In this document: one piece after another, positions 9,699 to 42,870 of the stretch
Numbering within the stretch: the stretch's first letter is position 1
Layout of the letters: each line of letters opens with the position of its first letter
Origin: Pseudovirgaria hyperparasitica
Lineage: Eukaryota
Assembly: GCA_010093815.1 (NCBI GenBank)
Contig: ML996586.1
Direction: 5' to 3' (one strand)
Length of the DNA stretch: 64,000 nucleotides
Notes under the pieces: model-generated
Databases searched by the model: none
Seen by the model: the letters and a program-made list of their open reading frames with translations, nothing else
Told to the model about the DNA's origin: nothing
Program-made: the position numbers and the translations under genes

Positions 9699-12600
9699 TC
9701 AAGCACCTAAGCTTTCCAAGCAATCACCAATTGTGACATCAAGAATTTCGGCGAAATTCTTGATACCCCTCGTAGAGTCTGTCGTGTTCTGGTCGCTAAC
9801 TTCGAGCACGCCTTCACACTTAATACCAAAGTCCAACCCACTTCCATCTCCCCTTGGCCCAATATCGACATAGAGATTTCCGTCACAAATCATTTCTACC
9901 AAACCATTGCTTACACTGTTCATATCGTCCACAGCTGACTTGCCGGACAGCTCATGTTCAGGTGCGAAGTCTGTTGGGAAGCCGATATGCAATGGCTGAA
10001 ACAATGCCTTTTCCTCCTTAGTACCAGTGTTTTCATTAGTCTCGGCATCTAGTACATCGCGTCGGAACAGAAGATTTAAGAATGCATTAAACGGCAGCCT
10101 ATCACCCTTGAAGCCCGCCCACTTCAAAACATCAATCATTCGACTCTGTTCAAATGCGGTGCGCTCGCCTAACATCTTCTGCACAGTCTTTGCTGCATCT
10201 AGTGGTCTCATTTCCATGACATTTGGTAAACCGAGAGGCAGCATATTTATGCATGGTCCGGCAATAGGACCATTGATGTCTTCGATAGATGCTGAGCGGC
10301 CATGTTGATAGAAGCCGAACAGGGGATCATGCGTCGAAGTCAAATTCGCGAGAACGCGCGCAAATGCTACGAGAACGATGTGATGAAGATTGATGTCATG
10401 CTGCCTGCATTTAGCTTCTACTTTAACGATATCAATAGGCGAGCCATGGACCAGTACGAATGTCTGCTGCTGTGCGCGTATTCCGTCCTGAATTTGGAAA
10501 ATCTGCTTCCTAGTGACGTGCGTTGACTTGCATGATCCTATCGCATGCTTCCAGAATTTCGCTTGATCGGAGTGTTTGATCTTATGGAGACTGTTGATTA
10601 CGAACTTGGAGAAAGGAACGTTATCGTCTATAGAAGCATTTCCTGCATACAAGCTTGCGAGCTCAGATATCAGGCGTGGCATACTGTAGGCGTCGTAGAG
10701 TGTATGATGTAGCATCAGCACAATGCCTTGACCATCCTTGGCAATGATATGGCGAAGACGTATGGGAGGAACGTAAAAATCCGATGGTGCTCTTACTTCT
10801 CTGTGGACTGTTTCACGTGTAGCTTCGAGGAGAGATCTGGATGGATTCTCAACCACAGAGAATGTGTTATCTTGCCACTTCGTTTCGGTATCAGCGCTCA
10901 GGACCACTTGCACGGTCCTTCCGTCCTCAGTAGCAATGATTGTCGTGCGCAGGATGGGGTTCCTCTCAATGAGCTTTAACCAAGCAATCAACAGCTTACC
11001 AGAATCCAAGGTTTCTTGTACTTTGTATGACCAGGCTGGCTCATATGTTGTCTTTCCGGATTTTAGCCACCCAGCAATATACCATTCCTGTCCAGGTAAT
11101 AGTGGCAACACATCCTCAACCTGGTCCGCTCTAACCGTAAGTATTTTCAAGGCAGCAGTCTTCAACTTGTCTGGAACAAGGTCCCTTTGTGCGACATCGT
11201 GTGTTTCAACAAGCCTTGAAGATCGAAGAGCGAATTCACAAATGCGACCCAGAGTGATTCCACCAACGATGTCAGCGGCACTGATACGCGCACCACTCTT
11301 ACGGCATTTCTGTGCGACTTGAATAGCTGCGATAGAGTCGAGACCAATAGAAAATATACTGGTTGCCAAGGTGATGGCATCCTTATGAACCTGGCATACT
11401 TCTGCCATTGCCGTCCGAATACTTTCCGCAAACTTCGATACAGCTTCGGTATCATAGTCTAAACTTTCTTCTTTCATCACTGTCAGAGGTAATTGTACCA
11501 GACCTCGAGGAACAGCAAGTATTGACCTGGCCGGGCTTTCAAGTATATCGAATAGTGCATCGTGGAAAGTATCCATCAAAGCATCGATCTGCTCGTTAGT
11601 GATGCGCGCGTTCGAGCGAGCCACCAACTGGGTCGCGTTTTGTTCGATTTCAAAGTTGAGCCGGTATTCTGAAGGCGCCAAGACTGAGTCGCCATCAATG
11701 GGCTCCCAATACTTTTCTGTTGCTTCACGGATACCCTGATCTAATTTTTGGAATGTGAATAGGCTGTCGATCAGGGGTGGTCCAGTCGGGTTACTTTGCT
11801 TGCGCCAAAGCTTCTGGACGTCGGCTAGGGACGCATGCTGGTAGTCAATGGCTTTTGTCATCGAGCTTCGAATATTACGCATCGTGGACTTGTTCAAGGC
11901 AAGTTTGTTGGCGAGTTTTATTCGAACTGGGACAGTATTGAATAACGGCCCGATGATCTGGTCTGCGGCTTCCACTGCCAAGGTCCTTCCGGCGAGGACT
12001 TGACCAAAGGTAACATCTCGTCTACCAACAAGCATGGCCAACGCTTTGCCAAATGCAAGAAGGCAAGCATCTTGTATGGTGAAGCCTTGTTCCCGACAAG
12101 TCTCCAGCATTGTGGACAGTGCTCGATCGAAGACAATTGTTCGAAGAACAGGCTTGGTAATCTCGTTGCCCACGGGGACTGGGATTCGAATGCTCTCATA
12201 GCCACGTAGGCTTGTAGCCCAGTATTGTACGGCCTCCTCTTGTCTCGCAGAAATAGCCTCGGCCGCCAGGTAGAATGGAGTTGTTCTAACGGCGACCTCG
12301 TGTTGAAGATATTCAGCAAGCTGCCGGAACATATTCACGATAGAAATACCATCATATAAACTGTGATGGAGAGATATGGACAGCAATCGCTCATTGTCCG
12401 ATTGGATGATATTTATCGCGAGTGGAGTATGATGGAAGTCGGCCTCGTCGTTAAACCTCATCTTCGATACGACACGCTCCATTTCTTCCCGTGCGTCTAG
12501 TGTTTTGGTCAAACGGACTCTAGCTACGGACTGCGAATGAACCACAGCAATCCACTGAGATACGTCTCGTTCTAGTCTGCGGAATGAAGTTCTCATTATG

Positions 12601-15600
12601 TCACTTTTACTGATCAGTGTCACGCAAGCCCGCTTGAGTGACGTCGAGTCCACATGAGACATCACTCTTACAACGTGATGATGGACGTAGAGCTTGCCAT
12701 CAACTGACAGAGTTTGCGTGATCATGCCACTCTGAAGCGGTGTCGCCACATAACAATGCTGAACATCGTTCTCGGCAGTGAGTAGCCCAGCAGATAGAAG
12801 CTGAGATTTGAGGGTCTGGGAGGATATATTGTCTGACTCGAGCGTAGAGGGGCGCGACTGTTCGTTTCTGCCATCGTAATTTTCCCCGGAGTCTTCATTC
12901 CCGTTCAAACTGTCGTTCACTCCGCCACTCGCATTCCCACTTCGCTTTCTATTGGTGCGGGGAATAGAACTGTACTCTTCGCCTATATTCTCTTTCGCTT
13001 TCTGCTTTATTTCCATCAAGGCCTTGATACTTCCAGATCGGATCACATCAGCCGAAGACATCTGAAATCCTTGTTTGCGCAGCTGCTGCGAAAACCTAAT
13101 CGCAACAATGGAATCAATGCCCAGATGAATGAACAGGGTGCGCTTTCCGATCTGTTCTGGAGGCACAGAGCAGAATGTTGATACCAGGTCTCGGAGCTGG
13201 CTTTCTTCTACACTCCATTCCTCGCCATTTGTAGCTGATTCCTCATTGCTGCTGTCGTCTGGAATATGCGCAGGCTCGGTAATACCTAGATCACGCAGAT
13301 AAATTTCAGAACCATCAGAGATGTCGTTAACGAGCATCTCGATATTCTTAAGGAACTCCCTTGCCCTTGTGGCATCGCCAAAGGCACCCGTGAAGCCAAG
13401 ACCAGCTTTGATTATATCGTTACTAGAATCGATTTCGAATTCAACTGCAAGCGCATAGTCGACAGAAATGGAATTTTCCACTTGTCTCCATGGTGACGTG
13501 CCCTCGTATATTCCACCTCCGAGTACCACAGAGAAGAGACAATCGTACAGAGGCCTGTTAGCTCCCACCCATCTTTGAATGTCACGTGGGGAGGTATGTT
13601 GAAACTCAAGGGCCTGGGCGCCGCTGGACTGCAGGCTAGAGAGTAAGTCCGTAATAGTGCGGGAACCAAATTCTCGAATGTTTGCTCGTTGAGGAATAGT
13701 CGTGATGCATGGGAATATCAACTTATCCGATCCATCCACTGAGCCCGTACGCCCGGAGAGGACATGTCCAAAGATAACATCATCCGAGTCCTGTGCTTGG
13801 GCTAATGATAGCGCATATGCACCTTGAAGTAGAGTTGACAAAGTGAGCTTCATAGGTCTCACAAGGTCCTCTAACTTGGAGAGGCTGCGCTCAAATGTCC
13901 GTGATACCTCGCTAAGGTGAGTGTCTGTCGAGTCACCAAGTAACTTTGTTCGTTGCCAATTCGACATAGAATTTGTCCAAAACTCTTTTGCGCGACCTGC
14001 ATCCAAAGAAGTAATGTACTCGACCATCTGTCTTGGTCCAGGTCTACTTGAAATTTGCTTCGACTCATAGAGATCGCGAAGATCCTTGAAAAGCGAGGTC
14101 AAAGATATGCCATCATATATCGCGTGATGAATAGATACACACGCACAATACCGACTAGTGCTTGTAGATTGCCAAACGGATACGCGAAGAGGTGCCTCGG
14201 TTGTGATTTTGCTCGTAATATCTTGGTTGTGAATGTCTGAAAGGAAGTCGTATCGGGTTTTTTGATCCAGTACAATGTCTAAATTGTCATGAACTGTCCA
14301 GTTTAACGGAGCATACTCAGCCTTGATAGCAATTTGATAGACATGGTCGTTCTTCAGGACGAATATGGTTCGCAGTATGCTATTCCTCGATACAATCTCC
14401 CGAAGAGCGTTCTCAAGCTTTGCAACGTCCACGCCCTCTTCCAATTCTAGAAGGATGTTGTTGATGTATGACCCATCTGTCGCATCAATCAAAGAGCTCG
14501 CGATCAGAGTTTCCTGCAAGGGCATACAAGGTAAGATATACTCAATTTCATTCTGTGGGACAGGGAGTCCCTCCTGGTGGAACAATTCTTGTTCGTTCTG
14601 CGATATGAGGTCGCGTGCTTTCGCAAGGGAAGCCTCCCTGGCCGTCTTTGTCGCCGCATCAGATCTGGGATAGGTAGCCACGTCTTCAATCGTGGGGTTC
14701 TGCATAAGTTTTGCTACACTGCAGCTATAGCCCATAGCTCTGAGCTTGGTGAATATACTGATAGCAGCGAGACTATCAACTCCAAGTTCGAACAGAGTCG
14801 TGCTGGGGGCTACATTATCACTTCCTTTGGGAATAACTTCTTTGATAATATCGCGAATCGCAGTTTCCTCATCATTCAGCATGCTGTTTGTTTTATCATC
14901 ATGGCGGCCTAGGTTCCCGTGAAATATGCTGAGAGAGATACCGAAGAATATTTTTGTGAGTAGCTTGTTCTCAGCTTTTCCAGAGGTGACAGCGAGAGGT
15001 ACATAGCTAAGCGGGACAATTAAATCTGGAACCATGTATGCAGCAAGTGACTTGCGACATAGAGCCCTCAGGGTGTTATTGATATCTTTGACTGTGTCAT
15101 CTAGAACCGTTGGCGGCTCGGGGTTCTGTTTTGTATTTGACCTGGACGTTGCAATGAAGGACACTAGCTGTAATCTTGAACTATCAGGGTGCCTCAACAC
15201 CAATGAAGCAACATCAATAGGGTCTCGGGAAGCCATACGAACACCCTCGGACACTTCACCAAGCTCTACTCGCTGTCCGCGAATCTTGACCTGGTCATCT
15301 TTCCTCCCAAGGAACTGAATGCTGGAATCAGGCATCATGCGAACTATGTCACCTGTTCTATACATGCGTGATCCTCGGAAATCATCCACGAAGCCTTTCG
15401 CATCTGGCCGGTTGTGATATCCGTTTGCAATAAGGCTGCCAGTGAAACAGAGCTCGCCGGGCATACCACGTTTGACATACTGTTCTGAATTTGGTACCAA
15501 CACATGTGCTCTACTATCACCTAGTGGTGAGCCGATATTGCTGGGATTGGAGTCCGGGAGCAACTTTGTAGAACAAAGGCCAATCGTAGCTTCTGTTGGA

Positions 15601-18600
15601 CCATATGCATTTATGAGGCCGACCCTGTCATGAGCACCCCAGAGCTTTTTCGTCTTCTGAGACATCTTCTCGCCACCTACACCGAGATAGTGTAAATATG
15701 GCGCGTCATCTGGCGTTAATCCGGTCTGATCGAGCAACGATGGGACGAAGCTGGCATGTGAAATTCTAAGTACTCGTAAGGCAAGGGCCAGGTCGTCTAG
15801 AAGGATCGTTCGCGAAGCAGATGTAGCACAAAGTCCATGTTTCCAAGCAAGAAACATTTCTCCAATGTGAACATCAAAGGCGCGGCTGGCAAGACAAAGG
15901 TAGGCTCCTTTACCTCCTAGATTTCTGGTAGCGGGGACAACTTCACAGATAAAGTCAGACTGGGCTTCAGTAAAAGCGCTCAGGTTACCACGGCTGACCA
16001 TGACACCCTTCGGTCTGCCCGTAGAGCCAGATGTATAGAGGAGGTAGGAATTATCGTCAAGGTTTTCTTCATTTGTGTCATTCGTCTCCTGTTCGTCGCT
16101 CTCATCTAAGCAGCGCTCAATATCATCATCGTTGCTACCGATCACTTTGCAGGCATACGGGATAACAACGTCATCGAGAAGCCCTTCAGTGCTGAAGATT
16201 AGTGTTGCACCACTGTCCTCAAGGAGAAAGGACTTTCGTTCAGCGGGGAAGCTCTCTTCTATTGGAACGTAACAGTTTGAAGATTTCATAATTCCAATCG
16301 CCACGGCAAAAGACCATAGGGTCCTACCCATACAGACAGCGATGGCCTTCCGGTGGGCATTCTTTGTGCGTAAAAATCGTGCAACCCGCTCTGCAGCTGC
16401 ATTAAGCTCACTGTAAGTCCAGCATACAGAGTCCGCATGAGTATCATGGATCTGGCTAGCAATCTCTACAGCTTTCCAATCTGGCTGTATTTCCGCCCAG
16501 TGTTCAACCCAATAGGTCGGGGAAACGGTAACAGGAAATTTTCTCGTTTCTCTGTGTGGTGTGATTGACAATAGTTCTTCTGGGAGAAAGGAAGTGAGGT
16601 GTTCAATGGGCTTATCAACATGATACACCATGGCAGTGACTAATGCATCAAGCTGTTTGCAGAGTAGCTGCTGTTGTTCATCAGATACTATACTCTGGTC
16701 GACAGAAAGTTCAAAATGTAGCTTTTCTGCCTTGGGCCATACGTGCAGCACCAATGGATGCTCAACAGAGAGGTCAAGCATATCCGGTGTCTGGGTCCAC
16801 AAAGAGGGTTTTCCGTCTTTCTCATCAACGGGTTCGTTCTCAACATTAAAAATGTAAAGTGCCGGATAGAGTATATCGTTGGAATCTTGGCCCAAGGCTT
16901 CTTTGACTACTCGTGGTCTGACTGAACGGTTTGCCATGACACTCCTGTAAAGCTGACTCTGGGTCTTTAAGACATCACTCATGAGCCCTGGCATCTTTCT
17001 GAACGGAACAGGTATCGTCGAAACAAGGGGTCCAATAGCCGTCGCAAGATCAGGGTGCACAACGCGCTCGTCCACTACCTCTCCAAGTAGTACGTTCTCT
17101 TTTTCTAGCATCTCCGAGAGCAGGAGACACCATGCAAGTCGGATTATCGTTGAGGCCGACGTCATGTGAAACCTTGAAGCTACGTCGCGAATCTTTTGGT
17201 AACTCAAGCTACTCTCAAATTCTTGCGTCCGGTGTACGATGTTGTCGTCAGAGTTTGACTTGCTTCGGAGGCCGACAAGGCCGTCTGCTTCATCATTATC
17301 AGAGAATCCATGAAGCGTCTTTCGCCAGAATGTATTGCAATTTTCTTGGCTGTCAAGAACGGAGGACTGTCTGACGGCGTCTTCCAATTGAGTACGTTTG
17401 GTCGGTTTTGAGAGACCGTCGTAGTACCTCTGCAAATCTTCCATGACGAAGCTTAACGATGGTCCATCAAAGACCGAGTGGTGTATACTGAACAGCATTG
17501 TTCGGCCCTCTTCATGTTTGAAGATGGTTACGGCCCACAATGGGCGCGAATACATTTCTTCATGATGCTTTACGTATAGTTCGTTGGCGCGTCTCTTTGC
17601 AGACTCTTGCGAAAAATCAGTCACTTCACGTTCTGACCAGTCGATATTCGCATCTTGATGTATCACTTGTAGGAATGTCAGAGCATGATCCTGAACAGCG
17701 CTCGGGGCGTTGGCGACACTAGCTGTGGCGAGAAAAGTAGTACGTAAAGCTGATGTATTAGAAGCCAGGTTTTCCCATGCAGCTCGAAGACGGGGCATGT
17801 CGATCTCTGAGCCTAGAGAAGAGGCGCGGTGAATCCAGTATGCTTGCGGCGATCGCAATGTCTCGCTGAGGATATTCTCCTGTATGACTAAAGCTGGAGC
17901 AACTGTGAAGGCGCCTCCTCTTGTAATATGACGCTTGACTGGATCATGCCAGTCACTATTAAATCCGGCTAGCGAACTCTTTGTCGCATTTCCATCAGCA
18001 TTCGATGATGACGACTTTGCTGCTAGATCTGCCAGAGTACGGGAACTAAGAGCTTCCATGACAGATATCGAGGAACCAGTTTTTCTTAGACGAGCAACGA
18101 GGCGAATTGCTCGGATGGAATCGAGGCCAAGAGCAGCAAGACTACTAGAAGGCCCAAGCGAGGACCTTGTAACTCCGGTAAGGTTGGCCACTATTTCGAT
18201 AAGGCTTTCGTGTTTCGCTGGCCATGCGCTAAAGTCACTGGCCGTCGATGCTCCTTCTCCCTCTATCAGGGATCTCCATTTAGAAAGGTCGCTAAAATGT
18301 AGGAGCCTGATGAGGGCTTTGCGATCGATCTTGTTGGAAACACTATGGGGTATGCGGTTTACCATGAGGTAGATATTCGGTAGCATAGCTTCGGGTAATT
18401 CCAACTCCGCCGACCTAGCAATCTCTTTTGCAAGAACAGCTGCTCTTGGATTTATGAGAGCTCTCAGATCCTGGGTATCCGCGAACTCCGGACTGACGAC
18501 AAAGGCTGCAAGTATATTCTCATCACCAGATGTGTCCGTAGGCGCACAAAACAAAACAGCAGCATTTTCAACAGAGCTATGACATTCCTGTATCGAATAT

Positions 18601-21600
18601 GCGATTTCACTAAGCTCCATACGGATGCCCCTGATCTTGATTAGATCGTCTTCTCGCCCAACGAACTCAAAAGTGCCATCGGAAAGCTGGCGAACCATAT
18701 CTCCAGTGAGATAGACTCGCCTGTCCAACATCGTATTGTAGACGAACTTCTTTGCAGCAATTTCTGGATCTTTGAAGTAACCGGGCGATAATTGTACCCC
18801 AGACAGTGCAAGCTCTCCTTGAGCACCTCTGAGGACAGGCTTCCCGTCTTTAAGGACATACGCTCCGACGGTCGGTAGCGGGAGCCCTATGTTGGAGCTG
18901 TTGTGCAAGTCACCATCTGCGCCGAATTGACGCATCGTTGACACAATCGTTGCTTCCGCTGGTCCATAGGTGTTGTAGGCTCTAGTACCCTGACTCCAAT
19001 CATCTGCGATAGATTGCGATAGCTTTTCCCCAATCATGGTCACGACCTCCACCGTGTTGAAATCTTTGCGTGAGAGTGTACCAGCAAATGCAGGTGTGCA
19101 GTGGATATGCGTCACCCTCGTTGCATTGCAAAGTTCCGTGATAGAGCCAAGAAGGATCTCACGCGTCGAAGAAATGACGGCTCCTCCCACTGCCCATGTG
19201 TAAAAAAGGTCTTGGACGAAGACATCAAAAGTGAAGCCGGAGAATTGGAGGCATCGAACTTGACCTCCTTTGACATCCGTGGGAATAGCGTGTGCTAGGG
19301 CCTTGATTGCTGCTACTGCAGACTTGTGCGTGATTGGCACGCCTTTTGGGGGTCCAGTGGTCCCTGATGTAAATATCATGTACGCCATATCGTCTTCAGA
19401 TATTTGCGGTGGATCAACGGCTGGTGTGGTACTATTTCGAGGGTTAACATTAAGGTCCTGGGAGGAGAGGTCTACAATAATAACCCCACCGGGAACAGAA
19501 TCAGGCGTGCACGACTCATGAACAAGCACTATTGGCCCGCCTGATCTTGCGATAAGCTCTCGTTTCCTGTTGGAGGGAAATGTAGCATCGATTGAGCACC
19601 AAGCAGCTCCTGCTTTCAGAAGAGCCAGGATGGCGATGTACAGCTTTGGGCATTTATCCATGCAGATAGGAACTATACACTTTCTCAGAGAGCCATATTT
19701 CTGTACGAGGATACCAGCCAGATTCGTAGCTCTCAAATCAAGCTCTTCATACGTCCACTGGGTAACATTGCTGGCGTTGTTAAGCTGCGCTTGAAACTCA
19801 AAAGCTACTTTTGACGATGATCCAGTGATGTTCCGCTGGAAGAGATCGTGCAACAAGATCTCAGATGTATTCTGCGTGTTGCAAGCCTCTACTGGGTATA
19901 TTGATAAAGTACTTTTTTGGCCTGCAAATTGGGCATCAAGGAACCGTGCTGCCGGATTCTCTAAGAGCCAAGTGATAATGTCCCCAAACTGTACCAGTAG
20001 CATTGATGCTGCTGATGGATTGAGGTGCGCATTCTTATACGTGACTCGAAGTTGTAGCTCGTCTTTCTCCTGTGGAAAGATCTCAAGCATGATCGGAATG
20101 TCTGCGTTCATTGCAGGTGTCTCCACAGGTCCCCACAGAGCCTGCGCATTAGATGCTTGCGTAAAAGCCTGAAATGCTAGTGTGGTATCGTATAGCATAG
20201 TATTTTCTGTGGTTCTTAGTGCGTCAAGTGGCATTTGATGGTGATTGATAGCTTCGGAGCTATGCTTCGTCAAGCGTTGTAGCACATCAGATACCCTATC
20301 GTCGGCTTTCGCTCTTACTCTTAATGGAACTATTGCATGTGTCAAGGCGATACAGTTGGTAAGGTCTTCATTTAGTCGATCAGACACGATACTGCCCATG
20401 GCTACATCAGTGGAGTATCCACTAAAGGCCATGAGAATTATGCTCCAGGCTGCTTGTAGAGTTGCGAGCGGTGAAGCTTTAAGTTTTCTGGCGCCTTGGA
20501 TCAACGACGAGAAACTCAACTTCGCAGTAGTCTCTGTCACCATCGAGTCTGAGGATACTAGGGACGGCCTCGCATATGATAAGCAAGGAAATTTAACCGG
20601 AGTGAAGTCTTGAAATTGGGCTTTCCAATAGTCTGCTGCGTCAATGTGGTCGGCGTCAAAATGTCTAGCGACGGCGATATCGACCGTTGTCCTCTTTGTG
20701 ATGTCACGATTATGGTAACGTTCCCACACAGCTTCTTCGAGTAGTTGCATAGATCCGCCGTCGAATATTGCATGGCATTGGCTCAATATAATAACCGTGG
20801 TACCATTCTCCGATATAAAAGAGAGAATCCAGGGAGGCTCTGTGAGGTCGATCTTTCTCTCAATATCCATGATGATAGTATCCAGAGTCTTGTTTGCTGA
20901 TCTGGACGAATTTTCAATGACCCTCGATCGTGCATCTGAAAATTTTGAACTGGGACTTAGAATACACTGAGCGAATGGCGAGAGCGCGTCGTCGACCTCG
21001 GTAAACACGGTGCGGTATATGGGGGCGTCTTGTAACGATGATATCCAGGCCTCCTTCAACTGGTCCATGTCAACATATTGTGCTGGCCGGTATATTGAAT
21101 GCTCAATGAATGCCTTGCGTGACTTTGGTAGGTTTTTGACAAAACTTGCAAGAATACTTGTCTGGATTGCCGTTGTTGGAAGCACATTTTCCAAGTCATC
21201 TGGCGCTAGACCCAGTGTTTTGACACAGTTGGATTCGTGCTTCTGGCGGAAAGCAGCTAAAATCCAGTGTCTTGACGGCGGGGAATAATTACATTGATCA
21301 TGATTTTTCGACTTTGTATGGTATAAATTGGCAATGTTTTTGATAGTTTGGCTCTGCAACACGTCACTGACGGTCAAACCAGTGACTTTATTCATTCGTA
21401 GAAGTTGAAGCAGCCGCACCGTTTGTAGACTGTCGATTCCAAGGCCGATCAAAGGCTCGTTGAGCTTGATGGATTTCACCGGAATACCAAGTAGCTTACC
21501 AATGCAAAGTCGGAGTGTCTCAACCACTTCATCGTCCAAATCTTCATCTAGATTTGTACTTTGATTGTTGCCGAGCTTGGATGTACGATAGTCACTGAAG

Positions 21601-23964: not shown

Positions 23965-24123
23965 AATCGTAGTTGCCGGAAATGTTTCGCAATGGCGGTG
24001 GAATCAATAAGTTCAAAAGAAGTCAGAGTAAGATTATTGGCCACACGGCATTTTCATTCTTATACTCAAACGACGAATGACTCGTATTATCCGTCTGTAC
24101 ACAGTCACTCGTGGCCAACGATG

Positions 24124-29472: not shown

Positions 29473-29541
29473 ATCTGATAAGCCTGATTGGACGTATAAG
29501 GCGTAGCTAGATCAGATAAAAATTTCGTCGTCTTATCAGAT
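29473..29541. promoter_or_regulatory. Three SreA-type GATA boxes (ATCWGATAA)
   Basis: ATCTGATAA 29473-29481, ATCAGATAA 29511-29519 and TTATCAGAT 29533-29541, ~0.8 kb upstream of the sidA-like gene. Confidence 0.8.
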
Positions 29542-31102: not shown

Positions 31103-34100
31103 TTACGTGCTTGACGGCCCTTGAGCAGGTGTATCGTCTGCATCCTCCTTTCTATCCAGTGTCTGATGCAAGGCATTCACCTTGTACGTCTCACTGCTCT
31201 CCAATAATTCTCTGTGTGTCCCACTTGCTGTGCAAACACCCTCCTCGATCACAAAGATCCGATCCGCACGCTCAATTGTGCGCAGACGATGCGCAATCGC
31301 AACTACCGTGATGCCCCGCGCCGCCCTCTCCAGAGCGTCCTGCACCAGTTTTTCGCTCTCCGCATCCAGCGCACTCGTACCTTCATCAAGTAGTAGTAGT
31401 CTGGGCTTACGGACCAGAGCACGCGCGATGGAGAGGCGTTGCTTTTGACCACCTGAAAAAGCCGTACCATTGGGCCCACAGCGTGTGTCGTAGCCATCTG
31501 GTAACGCTGCAATGGTATCATGAATATTCGCCAACCTGCACGCAGCTTCGATCTCCTCGTCACTCGCCTCGTGACCTGGGCTTGCGCCGATACTCAGATT
31601 GAACCTGACGCTCCCTTCAAACAGTACACTTTCTTGAGGTACTATGGCGATATCGTTGCGAAAGTCCGTACCATGCTGCAGGGCAAGATTCCGCCCGTCC
31701 ACTTCTACAGTCCCAGAAGATGGGTCATAGAAGCGCTCAATGAGTGATATTATGGTGGACTTTCCAGCGCCTGAGGGGCCTACAAGGGCACAGAATTGGC
31801 CGGGTTTGATGTCGAGGCAGAGACCCTTGAGAATGATGGAGTCAGGGCGGTTAGGGTATGCAAAGACAGCGTCTTGAATCTTGATGCCCACGCCGCTCTG
31901 TGTGGAAGGTGTATGGTCGGATGATGATGCGCCTGGAGTCTTTTCAGTATCGCCTGAGTTCTTTGAATGAGAGTAGCAGTGAGGGTCGACCGCGGGGTCG
32001 AGGGGGCCATTGATCTTTTTATTGCCTAGGCCGATGAGGTCAAGTATTCGTGCTGCGCCGACTCGGGAGCGAGCAAAGTCAGGAGCCAAAGCGAATAGTT
32101 GACCACAAGACTGTGCGCTGAATAACAAAGCTGGGAGGACGATGAAGAACTGAGTTTGCGAGTAGCGACCCTCAACGATGTTCTTGGTGCCCCACCAATA
32201 CCCAAGTGCGTAGACCAGGTTGCTAACGCTGTACGCAGTAGAAAGCCAGACGTTACTGTAGGCGATAGACTTGACGGTAGCTTTGTATGGCTCTGAGAGC
32301 GACCTTCGATAGACTCCATGAGTCACCTTCTCCAAAGAGTACAGCGAAATCGTTCTGATTGAGTTCACCGCCTCGACAGTGATTGAGGTAGCTTGTGCAA
32401 AGGCCTTCTGATGGCGCTCTTGGAACTGAGCCAGCACACGAATGCGCATTATCCCGGATCCTAAGAGAACAGGTATACAAGCCATGAGTACTAGACTAAT
32501 CCTCCAGGCTATGATATTGGAGAGAATGATTCCTGCAACAAAGTTGATGGTGACTGCAAATAAGACACCCAACGTTGTTCCTGTCAAAGCTGCAACGGCA
32601 TTGGTGTCGGTCGTGATGTATGCAAGGAGCGTTGCAGAGTTTCGGTCATTGGTAGTGTGCCATGTGATGTCTTTCCTCAAAACCGTATGGAACGATGCTT
32701 GCCGAGCCTTGAGAAGGACCTGCTCCGATACCATTCCGAATAATGATCCACTGACCAAATTGGCGAAGAATTCGACAACAGCAAGGACGAAAAATAGGAG
32801 AGCGAAAAAGCTACCACGACTTCTGATAGTGTTACCATCTTGGCACGGACTTAACGCCGATATAGTGTGTCCAAAGATTACAGCTTCACCAGAGTATGAG
32901 CCTCCAACAATGATGGAACCTGTAAAGCCGATAAATGCCCAGAGTAGATGGGGCCGCACGAGTCGTCCCACCCCACGAAGAGTAGCACCAAGGGGAAGGA
33001 TCGTCTTCTCTTTCTTCTTCTTATCCTTCTTCTGCTTCTTGTTGCTGGTTTCCGCCACCTTCTCATCCAGTGGAGCCTCCTCCTGTGACGATGCTTCTAA
33101 GGTATCAGGTACGGCCTCTTTGCTATCGACAAACTTTGCTTCCTCGTCAGACTTCACATTGACCTCGTCAGCGCGCAAAGTTGTCATGGATGTGCGTGCA
33201 GAAGTTGTGTCAACGTCACCAGATCCAACTTCCTGAAGACGAACCATGCTCGCATAGATGCCATTATATGCCATGAGCTCGGCATGGCTGCCTTGTTCAA
33301 TGAGCTCTCCGTGTTTCATGACAACGATGTTATCGGCTTTTTTGATTGTAGAAATACGATGGGCAATGGCGATAGTGGTCCTTCCCTGTGACACATTTTC
33401 GAGAGCTTTTAAAATTGATTGCTCACTGCGAGAATCGAGTGATGATGTAGCCTCGTCCAAAAGAAGAATGCGAGGGTTTCGAACGACAGCGCGAGCAACA
33501 GCGATCCTTTGTTTTTGGCCGCCACTCAATCTGCCTCCGACATGGCCAACAGATGTCGCGAGACCATGCTGAAGACCATCTACAAAGCGCAGAACATCTG
33601 CAGCCGCAGCCGCATCCCTGACTTTCCGTACGATTTCAGTAACAACAGGGGTGCTAGCTTTGATGGCAGTATCCCAGTCGGAGCCATCTTGTACAGCTTT
33701 GACCAAGTCTGGAAGGCTAGAGTCAAGCAATGCCTTGTTGATGGGTGAGTCTCGATCAGCAGCACACAAGAGACCGTACGCGATGTTTTCGAGTACGGAG
33801 CGGTCGAAAAGAGATGGATCTTGCTGCACAGTACCAATGGAGCCACGGAGTGATGAAACGTTCAGATGCTTGAGATCGATGCCATCTAGAGTGATCGTAC
33901 CTGAGTCTGGATCGTAAAGCCGAGTTATCAAAGCTGCGAGGGTAGACTTCCCACTACCGGATTGACCGACGATAGCGGTATGCTTGTTCGCGGGGATATT
34001 TAATGACAGCTTCTTCAGGACTTGGACTCCAGGGCGTGACACGTAGGTGAAGTCTACATCACGTATTTGGATGTCTCCATTCACTGATGAGATGCTCTGG

Positions 34101-35285
34101 CCGCCGTCAGGATTGGTGCCGTCGATCTTGGATGGCCTGTTGATGGTTTCGTGCAGACTCTCGGATGACGCGACGGCGCTACCAAAGATCTGCAGGAAAG
34201 GAGCCACCTGACTCAGAATGAAAGAGGCTAGTTCTGTCAGTATGATAAGCTCTAAGTCTTCTTCTGTGTGGCTTACCATCAACAAGCAAGAAGATGACAG
34301 TATAGACAGCGCCGACGGATGACGAAGTACCATTCTCGTCTACATCTGCTGCTATGGTACGACTTCCCTGCCAGTATGCAACGGCGTTAGTCGAATATGC
34401 GATGAAGTAGAGCAGTGCAAGCTGAGTAGCGGCAGTAACAGCTTTTTTATATCCAGCCTTCTGGGCATCACTGAGATGCTTTAGGAAGTTCGCTTCCAGT
34501 CGAGAGTTTGCGTTGAAAGCATGCACAAGTGAGATCCTTGACAAACTCTCGGAGGCGATAGACGTGGCGGAGGCGATGGATGTTGACACAGCCCCTGAAT
34601 ACTTCTTGATGAAGTGTGTTCCGATGAAGGTCATGAGAAAATATGCGGGCACCAGAGAAACAAGTATTCCAGCCAGCTTTGAATCTTTGATGAAGGAGAC
34701 AATGTAGGAGGCGACAAAGTACGAGACGGTCGCTATCACAATGCCGACCTTTTCTGACGTTCCGGCCTGGATGGTGTCTAGATCGGTAGTGAGACGTGAA
34801 GACACATCCCCGGCAGGTCTTTCATCAAAGAAGGCGAGCTCCTGTCTTAGAAGACTCTGGAAGTACTCATCTCGCAGTCGACGAACAAGACGCTCGCCGA
34901 ACCAGCTCCAACATCCCGTATGGATGTAAATGAAGCAAAAGTTGGCGATGGTAACATAGACGACATAAAGAACCTTCTGAGTGACGGCGCTGCTGACCTG
35001 GCCATTGCTTCCAGCCTGCGAATCACTACACGAGGAAGAATTGAGATCATCAACAAGCTGGCCGAAGAGGATGCCGAGCAGTGGAAATGGTACACCTGCT
35101 GCAATGGCAAAGACAACACCACCTAGGAGGAGGAGGTAGTCGAGAGTGGTAGGGCCGGCACGTGTGAGTAAGCGGAGATATCCTCCAAACCGTATGGACT
35201 TGATGCCCGCCTGTCGGTGTTAGTCTCGAGAGCTTTTTGGCAGAGACAGTTGGAACCAACTCACCGTGATCTTATTTTCCTTCAT
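31103..35285 (-). CDS. Full-length ABCB/MDR-type ABC transporter (SitT-like siderophore exporter)
   Basis: TMD-NBD-TMD-NBD with GQSGSGKST/LSGGQKQR/LLLDEATS and GPSGAGKST/FSGGQKQR/LLLDEGTS. Exons about 35285-35265, 35210-34277 and 34227-31103 with GT-AG introns. Confidence 0.92.
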
Positions 35286-35543: not shown

Positions 35544-35732
35544 TTATCAGATGGAATTACAGGCGTGGGACTAGTGGATAGTAAGGGCATAGTAGTGTTG
35601 ATCGAAGCAGTAGAGTGGAGCCACTCGATAATAGAGAGGGAAAGACGGCCGGGTTTGCGTCGGCTGTCGGAGTGGGCTGATGAGGATCCCGTGCCTCGCC
35701 TCGCCTTCAGATGGAAGGATTCAATCTGATAA
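35544..35732. promoter_or_regulatory. Two SreA-type GATA boxes in the ABC/acyltransferase divergent promoter
   Basis: TTATCAGAT 35544-35552 and ATCTGATAA 35724-35732; near-match ATCTGATTA at 35814. Confidence 0.75.
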
Positions 35733-36217: not shown

Positions 36218-37564
36218 ATGGCGACGACTAACAGTACAAGTCCTTCTCCGAAAGACTTTATTCTCAAGCTTCCACATCCCTACTTGACCGCATACGGCAT
36301 CAAGGAAAAGAGTATTTCCGGAAAACTGCATTGTTTCCTAGATCGAATTCGATCTCCCAAGTCTTCTCTCCGGACGGCACAGGAACCCCCAGAAATACTT
36401 CACAATGTCGATCTCTACTTCACGCTTCCTGAAATCCCATCCGAACAAGACCAACCTCCAGAATCCAACAACCTCTGGTGGGCACGCGCACAACGCTCTC
36501 CGTCCGTAACCCTCACCTGGCAAAACTCTGCACCGTCGCCCGCACAAGTATGGCTCGTCATATACGCGCTCTACTCCCTTCATACCGACATCGAGCACTT
36601 TCGCCTCAATCTGACTGGTGGAGGCTCAGACACAATCAGAGATCACCTCCTTAATACCCTGCTCGCAACATCACACCCGTCTCCCACCGACAGTGCCACT
36701 CCAGCTCTCGATCTCCCTATTCTCGTTCTCCGCAGCACCTTCTGGCAAGGGGCCTCCTCCCCCTTCGGCCCTCGCCCTCTCTGGCTCCCTGAGCCAAACG
36801 CCCCCGGATCGCCCGTGAAACCCCTTTCTCAATACCCCCTCCCACCACTCTCCCACCGCCTCACCACCGGCTTTCCATCTTCGCGCGTACACGCCCACCA
36901 TCCCATTCGTCCCGCGAAACCCGCGCCCGGTACCACCGTTTACAGCCGCTTCATCCCCCATCTTGGCGAGCACTTCAGCATGGTCGCCCTCGACCACACG
37001 CTGCCCGCACACCTCGAGCTCTTCCACAAGTGGCAGAACGACCCGCGCGTCGCCCGCGGCTGGAACGAGACGGGCACGCTCGACCAGCACCGCAAGTACC
37101 TGCAAACGCTGCACGATGACCCGCACGTGTTGACGCTGCTGGCGGCCTTTGACGACGTGCTGTTTGCCTACTTCGAGGTCTACTGGGCGCCCGAGGACCA
37201 CATTGGCGTGCATCACGCATTCCCGCCGTATGCGCGCGGGCGGCACTCGCTTGTGGGCGACGTGCGGTTCCGTGGACCGCACCGTGTGTGTGCGTGGTGG
37301 GGCAGTCTGATGCATTATCTGTTTCTAGACGATCCGCGGACAGGGCAGATTGTTGGCGAGCCCAAGGCAACGAATAAGACGGTGCTGGAGTACGACTTTG
37401 CGCATGGGTTTAGTCTGGTCAAGTGGATGGATCTGGGGCATAAGAGGAGTGCGCTGATGTGGTGTGAGCGTGAGAGATTTTTCCAGTTAAGTCCATTTGG
37501 GTGGAATGGCAGTGTGCTGGGGCCGGATGGGCTGAATGCATTGGTAACGAGTGCGAAGCTGTAG
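36218..37564 (+). CDS. sidF: N5-hydroxyornithine acyltransferase (SidF/IucB-AlcB GNAT family), PTS1-like C-terminus AKL
   Basis: FWQGASSPFGPRP, HHPIRPAKP, YSRFIP, FHKWQNDPRVARGWNE, FAYFEVYWAPED, RGRHSLVG, HYLFLDDPRT..VGEP and DLGHKRSALM motifs; 448 aa. Confidence 0.88.
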   Translation: MATTNSTSPSPKDFILKLPHPYLTAYGIKEKSISGKLHCFLDRIRSPKSSLRTAQEPPEILHNVDLYFTLPEIPSEQDQPPESNNLWWARAQRSPSVTLTWQNSAPSPAQVWLVIYALYSLHTDIEHFRLNLTGGGSDTIRDHLLNTLLATSHPSPTDSATPALDLPILVLRSTFWQGASSPFGPRPLWLPEPNAPGSPVKPLSQYPLPPLSHRLTTGFPSSRVHAHHPIRPAKPAPGTTVYSRFIPHLGEHFSMVALDHTLPAHLELFHKWQNDPRVARGWNETGTLDQHRKYLQTLHDDPHVLTLLAAFDDVLFAYFEVYWAPEDHIGVHHAFPPYARGRHSLVGDVRFRGPHRVCAWWGSLMHYLFLDDPRTGQIVGEPKATNKTVLEYDFAHGFSLVKWMDLGHKRSALMWCERERFFQLSPFGWNGSVLGPDGLNALVTSAKL

Positions 37565-37767
37565 GGGAGATGAACCGTGTTTAAAAACGATCTTCGTGTG
37601 CAGTGTAGACTTAACAAGAATAAGCATAGCCAGTATTTTTCGTGTATCCGACTCACAATACACTCGTACTTTTATGGTATGTCCCGAGTACATTTTATGA
37701 GGTAGATATATATGTATATACGAATATACTAAATGTCAAGCATCAAAAGAAGACTAGACAGCACCCT

Positions 37768-39402
37768 TTAAACCTCCAGCTCCTCATCAAGCCCCAAGCA
37801 TTTCAACGTCGCCCTCCACCCTAAATCCTCACCAAACAGCATCTCACGCACCTCGACACCACTCCTCGTTTCTGCCGCATACGGATTCCAACTGACCGCC
37901 TGCCTGCCCACTGCGAGGCCCATCATCGGCGGAACAGCGGGGAAGCGCGCCGCAGGACCGAATGGTTCGTCGTCCGCTGACTTTGTTTGGCTTGGTTTGT
38001 TTTTGTTCATAGCTGTGTCTTCATGATTTGAGCTATTGTCGCCATCCAGTGACGATCGTGCAGACGGCGGCGTGGCAGGTGCAGTATCGTGTAGGGAGAG
38101 TTCGTCGATGGGAATGTGGGAGTTGGAAGGGTAACATAGTTTTTCAGAAAGGAGGATTTCGCGCATGATATTCGTGGCGGCAACGTGGGCCATAACGAGA
38201 GCGGTGCCGGCACGCTTGACGCCTGACCAGGCGCAGATGTCGCCGGCGGCATAGTGGCGGGCGTGGTGCGGCGATGAAGGTGGAAAGGAGAGACTGTGTG
38301 CTTGTCAGTTCTGTATCATCCAGGGATTAGAAGAAGAAGGGGGTGGGGAAGGTAAAGGAAAGGAGCAACGAACGTCTCTTCTGCTTTGACAAAGCCGTGC
38401 TCGTCGAGGATATGTGCGGGGAGGAAGGCAGACGATGGGAGAGTCTTGCCAGTTGCGTTTATAACGTGGCCGGCATGGATGGCGGTGCCGTCGCTCAGGG
38501 TGACGATGTGCGATGTGCCCTCGCCATGCGTAATGCATGCTCTCTGCCCGAGCACGACATCGACACCCTCATGTCTAAGCACGCGCAAACTCTCCTGCTT
38601 GAAAGCAGCGGGCATGTCTTCGCTGGATAGGAGTTCATGCCGGGAATGCACCAGTGTCACGTGGACGTGCGGATGGCATAATTTGATTTCAGCGGCAAAC
38701 TCAATACCCACGGCGCCGCCGCCAACGATGACGACAATTCTGCGGCCTGTCGCATCGGCTTTCGCATCTTGGATCTTCTTGATCTCCCGCTCTGCGTCTG
38801 CGACATAGCTGTGAAAGTCTGCTGCGCGGGGAATGATGGGCCAGTCGCGCTTCAAGCCGGTACAGAGGAGGAGATAGTCGTACTCGATGCATGTCTCGTC
38901 GCCTGAGGGCGTGAGGTATGTGGCGCGGAGCGATTCAGGGTCGAGGAACTTGAGGTAACCCTGGACGAAAGTGAAATTCGGGTGGCGGAGGGCACGAATT
39001 GAGCGGTATGTGCGCCACGAGGAGCGTACGTGGGAGGGAGAAACGTGAGCAAGTGGTGCACCGACTGTGTGGACTAATAAGAGTTAGAATGGCAAGACGG
39101 TTCATTGTGATGTGTGAGGTTACGGAGCGCTAAGGGCGTGTGGGCGTGGGGGTTATAGGAAACGTACAGAAGCCGTCCCTGCGATCCAACAATGTGACCT
39201 GTACGCCTTTTCTGGACTTCAATCCTTTGAGATCTGGTAGTGTCGACGTGGGAGATGGGCGGTTTGGCTTGCCATCGATTAGGTGGAGGAGATTGACCAA
39301 GCCGGAAACGCCAGCATACGAGCCACCAACTACAAGAATCCGGTGCGGATGTGAGTCTGTCCTGGCGGGAGAATCCGGAGGGGTGATGATGGACTTCGAC
39401 AT
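37768..39402 (-). CDS. AIF/AMID-like FAD/NAD(P)-dependent oxidoreductase (Pyr_redox_2), multi-exon
   Basis: ILVVGGSYAG, IVVIVGGGAVGIEFAAEIK, VTLVHSR and AAGDICAWSGVKRAGTALVMAHVAATNI distributed over exons separated by introns (approx. 39166-39075 and 38373-38295). Confidence 0.8.
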
Positions 39403-39896: not shown

Positions 39897-40185
39897 ATCA
39901 GATAAGATTAGCAAATAGTATGAACCAGCAGCAGGGAAGGGTGCGACACGAGTCACACAACAACTGCAAAGGTCCGTGTGCACCAGCATCAACATCACAC
40001 TTAGTATCCTTGCACCGTGTCCCATGATGTTATTGGCCACCAGTCATCGTTACAAGCGAGGTCGGGAACTGTCAATTTAGGGTTATCTGATCCGCAGCCA
40101 GATGCCGTTCTAGGTCTAGCTTCCAGCCGAGTGAAAGGTCTGCGGCGTCGACTGGCGTGCGGCATTATTTATCAGATTATCAGAT
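39897..40185. promoter_or_regulatory. Four SreA-type GATA boxes in the oxidoreductase/MFS divergent promoter
   Basis: ATCAGATAA 39897-39905, TTATCTGAT 40083-40091 and overlapping tandem TTATCAGAT at 40169-40177 and 40177-40185. Confidence 0.8.
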
Positions 40186-41041
40186 TGTAAAGATCAACGG
40201 ATGGTAGAGCACAAGGCCGCCATGGGCGCGATGGCTTGCTCGGGATCCACTCCGTTGGCATGAAAGCAACAAAGTTCCAACAATGGCAACGGCAGAAACT
40301 CCTTGTCACACTCCTGGCCACGTACCCATTACTTACTAACTTCTATAGTACTATATAGGTATATACTTGGTATACATGGTACAATAATGTGCTAATGCTA
40401 CTACTACCCCAGCCCACTTGCCCTTGAGTCGGAGGCGGCGCAGGATCCGAGTCTCGAGCCGTGCCCCGCTTATCCCATCCCACCCCATCCCTCCCACCAG
40501 CTGAGAATCCCCCCCGGGCTCTGTCATTCCCTTGATTCCCCATTCTGTCCATCGCCGGCAACGCCTCCACAGCCTTTGGAGTGGGAGTGGCGCCACAATG
40601 GGCCAAAGCGAGAATGGTGGGAAAAACTTCTCGCTCCTGGTGAGACAATCCTGTGCAAATTCGCCCAATCCTACCTGGTGTTTCGCTTCTTCACATCTCT
40701 TCGTCGTTCTAGTCGTTCTTCCTTTACACCGGACTGCCTCGTGGCTAGACCGACATAGACCCTCATTCACAGCTGTCAGCCGTCCCTCTTCGCGGCAGAA
40801 CTCTGGCTCTCTATCTATCACGACCGCCGGCTACATACATATATCCTCGACGCCAAGCTGTGCTTCTTTTCCGCCTTCATCTGCCCTCTTGTCGGTCCCA
40901 CGGTACAAAGGCTCGCGTGTTGCATGTCTTGAATTTGCTGCTTTGCTGCCACGCATCGCTTCTTTCCGTGCCGTTTCAACTATCATCCGCGAGGCTACGC
41001 AATTGCACAAGGCTGTATAGTCCGTGCCTGCCCTCACCATC

Positions 41042-42870
41042 ATGCCTGGTCCTTTGGGAGCTGCCGAGTTTCCCACTGAGCAGGAGCACAAAGCACGCCA
41101 ACTGTCTATCGGAGGTGAGAAGAACATCAACCTGAGCGAAACTCACCAAGGTGTTTCTCTCGATTCTGATGTTGAGGCCTTGGAGAAGGAGGATGTCCAG
41201 TACGGTGTAAAGGCCGTCGAGGCAACCGCCATTGTTTGGTCTCGCAATGCCTTGATTGGAGCATACGCTGCGTACGTTACCAGTCACCATCAGCACAAGC
41301 CGTGTACTTCACTGACAAACTCAGAATCTTCCTGGTCTTCTTCGTCAATTCGTTCCTCCAGCAGACGAGCTACACCTTCACCTTGTACGTAACAAGTAGC
41401 TTTGCTCTGCACGAGCTTACTGCAACGACCGCCGTCATGTCGCAGATTATCGGTGGTGTGGTGCGGCTGCCCTTGGCAAAACTCATCGACATCGTCGGTC
41501 GCACCGAGGGCTACCTCGCTGCCCTCACCTGTGCAACCATTGGTCTAATCATGATGGCCGCCTGCAACGGCGTCGAGCTGTATGCTGCGGCTCAGGTGTT
41601 CTACTGGGTGGGCTATAATTGTATGGGCTATACCTTAGACGTCTTCATTGCAGACACTTCCAGTCTGAAAAGTCGAGGCCTAATGTTTGCTTTCACCACT
41701 GCGCCATACATTGCAACCACGTTTGCCGGGCCCGCTCTTGGACAAGAGTATCTTGACCACAGCACCTGGCGCTGGGGTTACGGTTCGTTCGCAATCATCA
41801 CGCCCATCATCTGTGCCCCGGTCGCCTTGATCTTCTGGATCAACAAGCGTAAAGCGAAGAAAGCTGGTCTGTTGACAAAGGTCCCCAGTGGCAGGACCTG
41901 GTTCCAGTCGGTCAAATTTTACCTCATCGAGTTCGACTTTATCGGCGTGCTCTTAATTTGCGCTGGTTTTGTCATGTTCCTCCTGCCGTTCAATCTCGCG
42001 GCCGGTTCTGCTTCCAAATGGAACAGCCCCGACATTATTGCTCTGCTTGTCGTCGGCATTGTGTGTCTCATTGGCTTTGTACTATACGAGAAGTTCGTCG
42101 CGCCAAAGCCCTTCATTCCCTTTGAGCTCCTTCTAGATCGCACTGTACTCGGGGCTTGCATCCTGGCTGCGACCCTGTTCGTCAGTTTCTACTGCTGGGA
42201 TGGTTATCTTCTGTCTTACCTGCAGGTCGTGTGGAATCTGAAGCCCAAGTCCGCAGGCTACATCTACAATACTTACAATCTCAGCTCTTGTGCATGGGGT
42301 ATCATCGCCGGCCTTCTGATCCGCCAAGCTGGCTACATCAAACGGTTCGCCGCCGCCGCAATGCCCCTCATGTTCCTCGGCGCAGGCCTACTGATCCATT
42401 TCCGTCAACCCGACCAATCCGTCGGCTACGTCATCATGTGCCAGGTTCTGATCGGCGTCGCTGGTGGCACTCTCGTCATCTGTGAAGAGATTGCGGTCCT
42501 CGCTTCCGGCGCCCACGAGAATGTGGCAACGTTGCTTGCCTTGATCGGCATGTTCAGTTCCATCGGTGGCGCCATCGGTTTGTCTGTCTCGGCAGCTATC
42601 TGGACCAACATCGTGCCGGGCGAGATCGCGGCACGGCTACCGGCGGACTCGGCTGTGACTGCAGCTGAACTTTATGCCAGTGCCATCACCGTTCTGACCT
42701 ATGCACCCGGCACGCCGGAGCGCAACGCTGTCATCGGCGCTTATGCTGTTGCCCAGAGATGGATGGCCATTGCCTCGACATGTATTCTGGTTATTGGGGT
42801 CGGTGCTATTGCTGTGTGGCGTGATATTGATGTGCGCAAGTTCAAGCAGGTCAAGGGCCGCGTCGTCTAG
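41042..42870 (+). CDS. Siderophore-iron MFS transporter (MirB/Sit1/Arn family), ~591 aa
   Basis: QYGVKAVEA, YVTSSFALH, LPLAKLIDIVGRTEG, YAAAQVFYWVG, DVFIADTSSLKSR and WRWGYG motifs; many TM segments; intron 41272-41324. Confidence 0.92.

Follow-up and report, generated by a model that had tools for sequence, protein, structure and literature searches.

Which siderophore is made by a fungal gene cluster that joins a ferrichrome-type synthetase to acyl-activating and acyl-transferring enzymes of the fusarinine type? The question is raised by a 64,000-nucleotide stretch of contig ML996586.1 of Pseudovirgaria hyperparasitica (GenBank assembly GCA_010093815.1), the whole of which we analysed and refer to as the window. 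An earlier note, made from the sequence alone, had described in it a self-contained hybrid siderophore cluster with a synthetase of non-ribosomal peptides (NRPS), an acyl-CoA ligase (SidI), a SidA-like gene, an ABCB exporter, an acyltransferase (SidF), a flavoprotein reductase and a major facilitator superfamily (MFS) importer. Pfam searches of the long open reading frames (ORFs) recovered all seven genes where that note had placed them, in one contiguous block. It is nearly certain that this block is a genuine siderophore cluster and is expressed, with regulation by iron probable. Most likely, the cluster is iron-repressed and makes, exports and re-imports an extracellular cyclic-peptide tris-hydroxamate ferrichrome with anhydromevalonyl acyl groups, similar to ferrirubin, ferrirhodin or epichloenin. 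That the product is a ferrichrome built on anhydromevalonyl-hydroxyornithine (AMHO), with the hydratase SidH supplied in trans, seems to us probable, if with considerable room for doubt.

The NRPS lies on the minus strand, where its ORF (9699-23486) carries Pfam AMP-binding, Condensation and PP-binding domains. This ORF is 100% identical to the annotated P. hyperparasitica protein P0002 (4730 residues), and mapping of P0002 onto the window gave a gene of 9699..23964 with coding exons 23964..23521 and 23447..9702 plus the stop codon. The coding sequence of the NRPS thus extends beyond the ORF, to 23964, via a 5' exon. Pfam analysis of 26 overlapping 350-residue tiles yielded adenylation (A), thiolation (T) and condensation (C) domains in the order A-T-C-A-T-C-A-T-C-T-C-T-C. 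The same order, (A-T-C)x3-T-C-T-C, is given for SidN and termed 'Type II' in the available part of the source (PMC3642064). In the translation, the DS site is kept in all five T domains and the HxxxDG motif in C1-C4, while the terminal C domain reads HHTLYDA.

Homology was assessed with residues 60-1200 of the NRPS, for which we considered the best 120 of 437 matches. Among these, the nearest named relatives are Phyllosticta proteins called 'SidC' or 'BcNRPS3' (41% identity), followed by Aspergillus SidC (38%), with NPS2-type synthetases only 25-30% identical. A tree of 27 third adenylation (A3) domains, built with IQ-TREE and with the full SidN sequence left out, groups the window with Neodothiora, Lecanosticta and P0015 (support 95/93). 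Together with Thozetella, Aplosporella and Phyllosticta, this group forms a clade of eight rows (99/99), which is sister to Aspergillus SidC (87/81). This kinship with the SidC/SidN lineage, along with three A-T-C modules followed by two T-C units, bears out the description of the enzyme as a ferrichrome-type NRPS. The nine-residue code of the second adenylation domain (A2) is DVQHTITIV, one residue away from the DVQHTITVV found in 11 of the 13 A2 domains compared, SidC included; two Phyllosticta rows read DVEHTITVV. SidC A2 activates only glycine (PMC10192304). The code of the first adenylation domain (A1; 22.4-23.2 kb, minus strand), DPVFWSIIH, is identical to that of none of 12 SidC-lineage A1 domains compared, five of which share DPMMWMAIN; the Aspergillus SidC code is DPAMWITIA (Ser).

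It is the substrate pocket of the A3 domain (14907..16529, minus strand) that most directly supports a bulky acyl-hydroxyornithine. This domain matches the SidN-A3 structure (PDB 3ite) with an E-value of 1.4e-178 and 598 bits, at about 52% identity by hand count; with Aspergillus SidC A3 the figure is 46%. According to the available part of a review (PMC11253843), the SidN-A3 pocket comprises 17 residues, FWIFDVGELGYGVGVIG, and its five glycines are thought to accommodate the large AMHO. These positions were carried over along the ungapped section of the alignment of A3 with 3ite, and the same columns were drawn from the 27 A3 domains. The window reads FQIYDVGELSYGVGAIG, as in SidN at 13 of the 17 positions, with four of the five glycines kept; SidC keeps two. 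The corresponding pockets are FQIYDVGELSYGVGAVG in Thozetella, FQIYDVGELSFGVGAVG in Aplosporella, FQIYDVGELSFGVGAIG in P0015, FITYDPLEFSFTVGAIG in Aspergillus SidC, FMIYDVLEMSFTVGAIG in Phyllosticta and AFFWDVLEWDVITG[GA]IG in nine of the 11 rows of the NPS2 type. Of the remaining two, Coniochaeta departs from this pattern at one position and Drepanopeziza at four, and both agree with it at positions 235, 239 and 295. It is at these three positions that the classes part. Both the window and SidN have G/L/G, whereas all 15 acetyl-like rows (two Aspergillus SidC, two Phyllosticta SidC-like and 11 NPS2-type) have L at 235 (M in Drepanopeziza), F, W or M at 239 and T or I at 295. Acetyl specificity has been demonstrated for SidC (PMC10192304) and is taken for NPS2 from its assignment to ferricrocin (PMC4290682). 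Quite different A3 pockets occur in the Fusarium NPS1-like proteins compared. The pocket thus fits the bulky acyl group that the earlier note had predicted, with 13 of 17 residues as in the AMHO-activating SidN-A3 and small residues at 235 and 295.

We next turn to the enzymes that would supply such an acyl group. The ligase ORF (25093-26924, plus strand; Pfam AMP-binding) corresponds to a gene of 591 residues at 25096..26924 with one intron, equal to the annotated protein P0245. Its assignment as a SidI orthologue is upheld by 59-63% identity to many ascomycete proteins, four of which, from Exophiala, Metarhizium, Colletotrichum and Apiospora, bear the name 'Acyl-CoA ligase sidI' given by their annotators; a Neurospora ligase falls in the same range. 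As a yardstick, SidI of A. fumigatus and its Scedosporium orthologue share 64% identity (PMC5932178). PDB searches with the ligase found no SidI structure and gave feruloyl- and fatty-acyl-CoA synthetases as top matches, and a Protein Atlas search returned generic AMP-binding clusters only. The ligase ends in ARL, a consensus type 1 peroxisomal targeting signal (PTS1), and its N-terminus contains no consensus type 2 signal (PTS2), as the stretch RLPSLSIVH fails to conform. A PTS1 end is found in 100 of the 120 closest SidI-like matches, none of which has a PTS2 within its first 40 residues. For SidI, PTS2 is known from Aspergillus and PTS1 has been described for Sordariomycetes (PMC3709128). 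The PTS1 tail and the Sordariales among the top matches prompted the idea of a horizontal transfer of SidI from Sordariomycetes, which we dropped since matches from Dothideomycetes and Chaetothyriales are just 1-3 points lower and also end in PTS1.

The acyltransferase gene (ORF 36215-37564, plus strand; Pfam Acetyltransf_8) is intronless and encodes 448 residues (36218..37564). As the earlier note had proposed, it is a SidF orthologue: residues 2-433 align end to end with residues 15-447 of the A. fumigatus SidF structure 7qf6, across both domains, with an E-value of 5.1e-129 and about 48% identity by hand count. In the available part of the source, SidL resembles SidF in the C-terminal half only (31.6% identity; PMC11751504). 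As the likeness of SidL is limited to that half, an acyltransferase that aligns over both domains is of the SidF type. No homologue in the collection exceeds 56% identity to the window protein. Its C-terminus is AKL, which conforms to the PTS1 consensus and is the same as A. fumigatus SidF's own (PMC3709128). The PTS1 tails of both enzymes fit a mevalonate branch that is predicted to be peroxisomal. Neighbouring locus tags for SidF-like and SidI-like genes occur in several Sordariomycetes, namely Cercophora (OQA88_1325/1326), Thielaviopsis (TD95_001665/001667) and Monosporascus (DL767_002008/002005), so that linkage of the two genes appears to be common.

In Aspergillus the branch runs through SidH, and the earlier note was correct that the window holds none. 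No ECH_1 or ECH_2 match was found among the 93 window ORFs of at least 110 residues or among the 239 ORFs of 55-109 residues outside the seven genes, a scan that exons shorter than 55 residues would escape. The further step from this absence to a new compound is without support. The Scedosporium orthologue of sidH is found 110 kb away from the cluster of sidD, sidF and sidI (PMC5932178), and given this precedent for an unlinked sidH, the absence is weak ground for a new acyl group.

The gene expected to provide N5-hydroxyornithine is an unusual one. Its ORF (27878-28732, minus strand) matches Pfam Lys_Orn_oxgnase (PF13434; E = 4e-46) and belongs to a gene with one intron at 27212..28702, encoding a SidA-like N-hydroxylating flavin monooxygenase of 479 residues. 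The public annotation, P0365, has 390 residues and ends '...ATGDER'; a colinear transcript contig backs the longer form. The flavin adenine dinucleotide (FAD) motif is present as GFGPSS. Over the N-terminal 250 residues, the match to A. fumigatus SidA reaches only 118 bits at about 32% identity by hand count; the match to bacterial PvdA has 100 bits. The nearest of 1.84 billion representatives, a fragment, shows 59% identity, and the one after it 40%. In SidA, Lys107 and Asn293 bind ornithine. Near Lys107, canonical fungal SidA reads SF[IL]KD[LFM]A[TS] and the window SFLQDLAM; near Asn293, DDSPFVN[ES] becomes DGSPFTAQ; and the NADPH motif GxGQSxAE (GGGQSAVE in one row) becomes GANNEAVE. The enzyme therefore has Q for Lys107, FTA for FVN at Asn293 and no second glycine in the NADPH motif. 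In addition, it reads ATGD where six of the seven rows reaching that motif have ATGY and one has GTGY. By comparison, the lysine is present in 112 of 150 representatives and the second glycine in 115 of 150. Hence, the 'SidA-like gene' of the earlier note is rightly placed in the Lys_Orn_oxgnase family, while its deviant motifs and divergent clade set it apart from canonical SidA. With SidH missing and the hydroxylase deviant, it is doubtful that the cluster is self-contained.

A FastTree phylogeny of 98 full-length rows places the window hydroxylase in a clade of five (support 0.993) within a clade of 15 (0.991). The lysine is missing from all 15 rows of the larger clade, which account for 15 of the 18 lysine-less rows of the tree, and the second glycine is missing from nine of them. 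The next enclosing clade (18 rows, support 0.881) brings in three canonical representatives. Named members of the deviant clade come from Tothia, Rhizodiscina, Venturia, Aureobasidium, Lecanosticta, Neodothiora and Phaeomoniella, and a Zalaria protein outside the 98-row tree has the same deviant motifs. Linkage in these fungi was judged from locus tags and contig sizes in the match tables. In Neodothiora, the hydroxylase (AAFC00_005051) and a SidC-lineage NRPS (AAFC00_005049) have tags two apart on contigs of equal size; in Lecanosticta, the contigs that carry a clade member and a SidC-lineage NRPS both measure 423,950 bases. The joint occurrence of this type of hydroxylase and the SidC-lineage NRPS thus seems to be conserved, which argues for a conserved function of the hydroxylase. 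One could go further and regard the clade as an undescribed SidA-derived group, mostly of Dothideomycetes and found next to SidC-lineage NRPSs, that may use another reductant or substrate. Taken together with an A1 code of its own and the lack of a SidH nearby, the product could then be a structurally new ferrichrome. We rate this as a long shot. If it were so, the co-clustered FSP1/AIF-like flavoreductase may be the reductant, acting as a two-component partner.

Expression of the cluster is evident from two public runs (X1 and X2, of unstated kind) with contigs over the locus, which we aligned to positions 24000-43500. X1 contigs cover 30 of 30 bins and X2 contigs 29 of 30. The contigs bridge all eight introns in this region, and every boundary is GT..AG or CT..AC; since all skipped stretches have such ends, the contigs are taken to be transcript assemblies. 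Spliced transcript contigs span all seven genes. The skipped introns are 24296-24343 in the NRPS leader, 25496-25548 in the SidI orthologue (predicted from the sequence and then confirmed by a GT..AG contig joint), 27831-27881 in the hydroxylase, 34228-34276 and 35210-35263 in the ABC transporter, 38294-38373 and 39074-39167 in the reductase and 41272-41324 in the MFS gene. The NRPS leader intron (48 nt, minus strand) shows a CT..AC joint in both X1 and X2 and lies upstream of the annotated start at 23964, and the NRPS transcript contig extends to 24533.

The promoters point to iron control. Siderophore gene promoters of Histoplasma share the sequence (G/A)ATC(T/A)GATAA, which the GATA factor Sre1 bound in vitro (PMC2275787). 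In the window, ATCWGATAA occurs nine times against 1.34 expected, a count reached in none of 100 shuffles, and all nine sites fall in three promoters of the cluster: three upstream of the hydroxylase transcript (29473..29541), two in the divergent ABC/SidF promoter (35544..35732) and four in the divergent reductase/MFS promoter (39897..40185). The plain WGATAA motif is not enriched (62 observed, 62.9 expected). The earlier note had correctly called the layout of the genes mostly divergent pairs: NRPS and ligase, ABC and acyltransferase, and reductase and MFS are divergent, and two junctions are convergent.

The remaining genes would move the siderophore and its iron. The ABC gene (ORF 31103-35219, minus strand; Pfam ABC_membrane and ABC_tran) encodes a full-size, ABCB-type transporter of 1359 residues (31103..35285) with two introns, which is presumed to be the siderophore exporter. 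The MFS gene (ORF 41176-42870, plus strand; Pfam MFS_1 and TRI12) encodes 591 residues (41042..42870) with one intron and is probably of the siderophore-iron-transporter type; its Atlas cluster, 'MFS siderochrome iron transporter 1', has a score of 0.99 and serves as a lead only, and a PDB search found no relative. The flavoprotein gene (ORF 38316-39083, minus strand; Pfam Pyr_redox_2) encodes an FSP1/AIF-like FAD/NAD(P)H oxidoreductase of 486 residues (37768..39402) with two introns, and its best PDB matches are FSP1/AIFM2 (E = 2e-16). In gene type it corresponds to OXR1 from the siderophore cluster of Histoplasma. A similar oxidoreductase presumably adjoins sidI in A. fumigatus.

From these parts, we infer the following route. 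The clustered hydroxylase, atypical as it is, would form N5-hydroxyornithine. Peroxisomal SidI would produce mevalonyl-CoA, a SidH-type hydratase encoded elsewhere in the genome would dehydrate it, and SidF, again peroxisomal, would transfer the acyl group to give AMHO. The NRPS would then load a small residue through A1, glycine through A2 and AMHO through A3, with A3 serving T3 to T5 iteratively and the terminal C domain cyclising the peptide. The ABC pump would export the siderophore, the MFS transporter would re-import its ferric form, and the flavoreductase might, more speculatively, release the iron by reduction. When iron is plentiful, a GATA repressor of the SreA/Sre1 type would be expected to silence the cluster.

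Several observations weigh against this route, and some of them favour its main rival, in which the locus is the equivalent of a SidC cluster and yields an acetyl-type ferrichrome similar to ferricrocin or ferrichrome. SidI and SidF would then serve an NPS6/SidD-type NRPS for fusarinine or coprogen encoded elsewhere, or SidF would itself supply acetyl-hydroxyornithine. The NRPS does belong to the SidC lineage, and among the matches listed for its N-terminal region, its closest full-length relatives, those of Phyllosticta, have an acetyl-like A3 pocket. In Aspergilli, sidI adjoins sidC even though the acyl groups that SidC takes are acetyl (PMC5932178), and linkage of sidI to the NRPS accordingly proves little. 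SidF also accepts acetyl-CoA in vitro, as stated in the available part of PMC11751504. SidH is absent from the 64 kb, which leaves the SidI-SidH-SidF branch incomplete within the window. The pocket argument depends on one characterised AMHO domain, SidN-A3, from which four of the 17 residues differ (W202Q, F222Y, G272S and V320A). Other points touch the route more generally. As the A1 code is unmatched, that residue of the peptide backbone is not predictable; with Lys107, Asn293 and the second glycine lost and ATGD in place of ATGY, ornithine hydroxylation is not assured; and exact ATCWGATAA is absent from the NRPS/SidI promoter, where a site with one mismatch lies at 24642 and an AGATAA at 24650. 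Against an acetyl-type product, the A3 pocket has G/L/G at 235, 239 and 295 as in SidN, where each of the 15 acetyl-like rows is bulkier, and the exporter, the importer and the GATA sites all lie within the cluster. We therefore regard the acetyl-type product as possible but unlikely.

A second alternative takes the missing SidH at face value: the organism would have none, and SidF would transfer non-dehydrated mevalonyl or another acyl group activated by SidI to give a new hydroxamate siderophore. It can draw on the lack of any enoyl-CoA hydratase in the 64 kb and on the distance of the proteins from their homologues, the SidF orthologue having none above 56% in the collection and NRPS residues 60-1200 none above 41% among the best 120 of 437 matches. 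The unlinked sidH of Scedosporium (PMC5932178) speaks against it, as does an A3 pocket resembling that of an AMHO-activating domain, and no feature of the sequence suggests a different acyl donor. This scenario appears very improbable, and a truly new acyl group is on present evidence very unlikely in general. Least plausible is that the cluster is partly decayed, with the hydroxylase a pseudo-enzyme, so that a canonical SidA elsewhere would be needed or nothing would be made: the lost glycine and lysine and the ATGD motif would suit decay, but the reading frame is intact, the transcript is spliced, the deviant features are common to a well-supported clade of 15, and the apparent co-location of clade members with a SidC-lineage NRPS in Neodothiora and Lecanosticta argues for a conserved function.

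Anhydromevalonyl ferrichromes such as ferrirubin, ferrirhodin and epichloenin are known compounds, and FNR1 of Fusarium sacchari is the ferrirhodin synthetase, an NRPS of the ferrichrome type whose siderophore contains AMHO. The 'hybrid' layout, too, is less unusual than the earlier note had assumed. Three Aspergilli have a conserved cluster of sidC and sidI (PMC5932178), AMHO is used by SidN, an NRPS similar to SidC (PMC3642064, available part), and the same accessory set has been published for Histoplasma, so that the kind of cluster is already known. In the window, these familiar elements come together at one locus and in a fuller set. In the titles and abstract openings searched, from which most subscription journals were missing, no published cluster with exactly this content around a SidC/SidN-type NRPS was found. 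The literature that we examined describes no AMHO-ferrichrome synthetase other than SidN, and sidN stands almost alone in its genome.

Among the known systems, Epichloë festucae SidN, which makes epichloenin A, resembles the window in domain order, SidC-like sequence, an A3 pocket that would suit AMHO (13 of 17 residues), a nearby ABC gene and, in its product, an extracellular ferrichrome-type siderophore, as far as the available part of the source goes (PMC3642064). The same part reports only one ABC gene beside sidN, whereas the window adds SidI, SidF, the hydroxylase, the reductase and the MFS gene, and it proposes Gly and Gln as substrates, so that those of A1 and A2 may differ between the two. 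Aspergillus SidC shares with the window the NRPS lineage, the domain order, the adjoining SidI and an A2 code one residue apart (PMC5932178, PMC10192304). It differs in its bulkier A3 pocket (L235, F239, T295), which takes acetyl-hydroxyornithine, and in its A1 code (DPAMWITIA as opposed to DPVFWSIIH), and its cluster lacks the sidA, sidF, sitT and importer genes.

The SID1 cluster of Histoplasma capsulatum offers the closest parallel for the accessory genes, with the ornithine-monooxygenase-type gene SID1, the SidF orthologue SID3, the acid-CoA ligase SID4, OXR1, ABC1, an MFS gene and the (G/A)ATC(T/A)GATAA promoter site (PMC2275787). Unlike that of the window, however, its NRPS is described as orthologous to the extracellular fusarinine/coprogen-type synthetases and not of the ferrichrome type, and its 'dehydratase' NIT22 has no counterpart here (PMC2275787). 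SID4 carries a PTS2 (PMC10470777), whereas the window ligase carries a PTS1. The ferrichrome A system of Ustilago maydis (Fer3/Fer4/Fer5) is similar in making a bulky-acyl ferrichrome-type siderophore with a SidF orthologue and employs an enoyl-CoA hydratase (PMC3709128). Its description sets it apart from the window: it is a basidiomycete system without SidI or PTS signals, and its hydratase is clustered. The comparison by sequence covered a Pseudozyma NRPS of similar size that may be Fer3. In lichen mycobionts that have both genes, SidA and SidC are clustered in Xanthoria and most others; in Xanthoria SitT is clustered as well, and SidI and SidH are absent (PMC13462969).

If the AMHO-type reading is true, an expressed single locus with NRPS, SidI, SidF, hydroxylase, exporter, importer and reductase would offer a handy starting point for reconstitution in a heterologous host and could help to assign products to related Dothideomycete clusters. 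New insight is most to be expected from two parts, the clade of deviant hydroxylases and the reductase of the OXR1 type, which recurs. P. hyperparasitica lives as a parasite of rust fungi, a setting in which rivalry for iron may be important; of 24 papers that name the genus, none of the 15 considered by title and abstract opening deals with siderophores.

Some features of the window lie outside this argument. The X1 contig of the ABC gene continues about 1.4 kb beyond the stop codon (29736-31102), and the X2 contig ends at 31044; the extension could be a long 3' untranslated region, read-through or an unannotated transcript, and the ORFs within 29736-31102 gave no Pfam match. To the right of the cluster, about 7 kb (42871-50000; GC 46-50%) hold many ORFs of 55-205 residues with no Pfam match, and the right flank encodes a DHHC protein, a CTLH/LisH/SPRY protein, Ies4, TFB6 and a dynamin, with no relation to the cluster. 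Equally unrelated is the left flank, with HsbA, DUF2237 and a weak match to the phosphotransferase (APH) family, as well as two genes that are apparently independent of the cluster: an NLR-like gene with NB-ARC, DUF7779 and TPR domains, which runs off the left end of the window (2-2116, plus strand), and, adjoining it, a gene for a protein with a glutamine-synthetase catalytic domain (2522-3868, minus strand).

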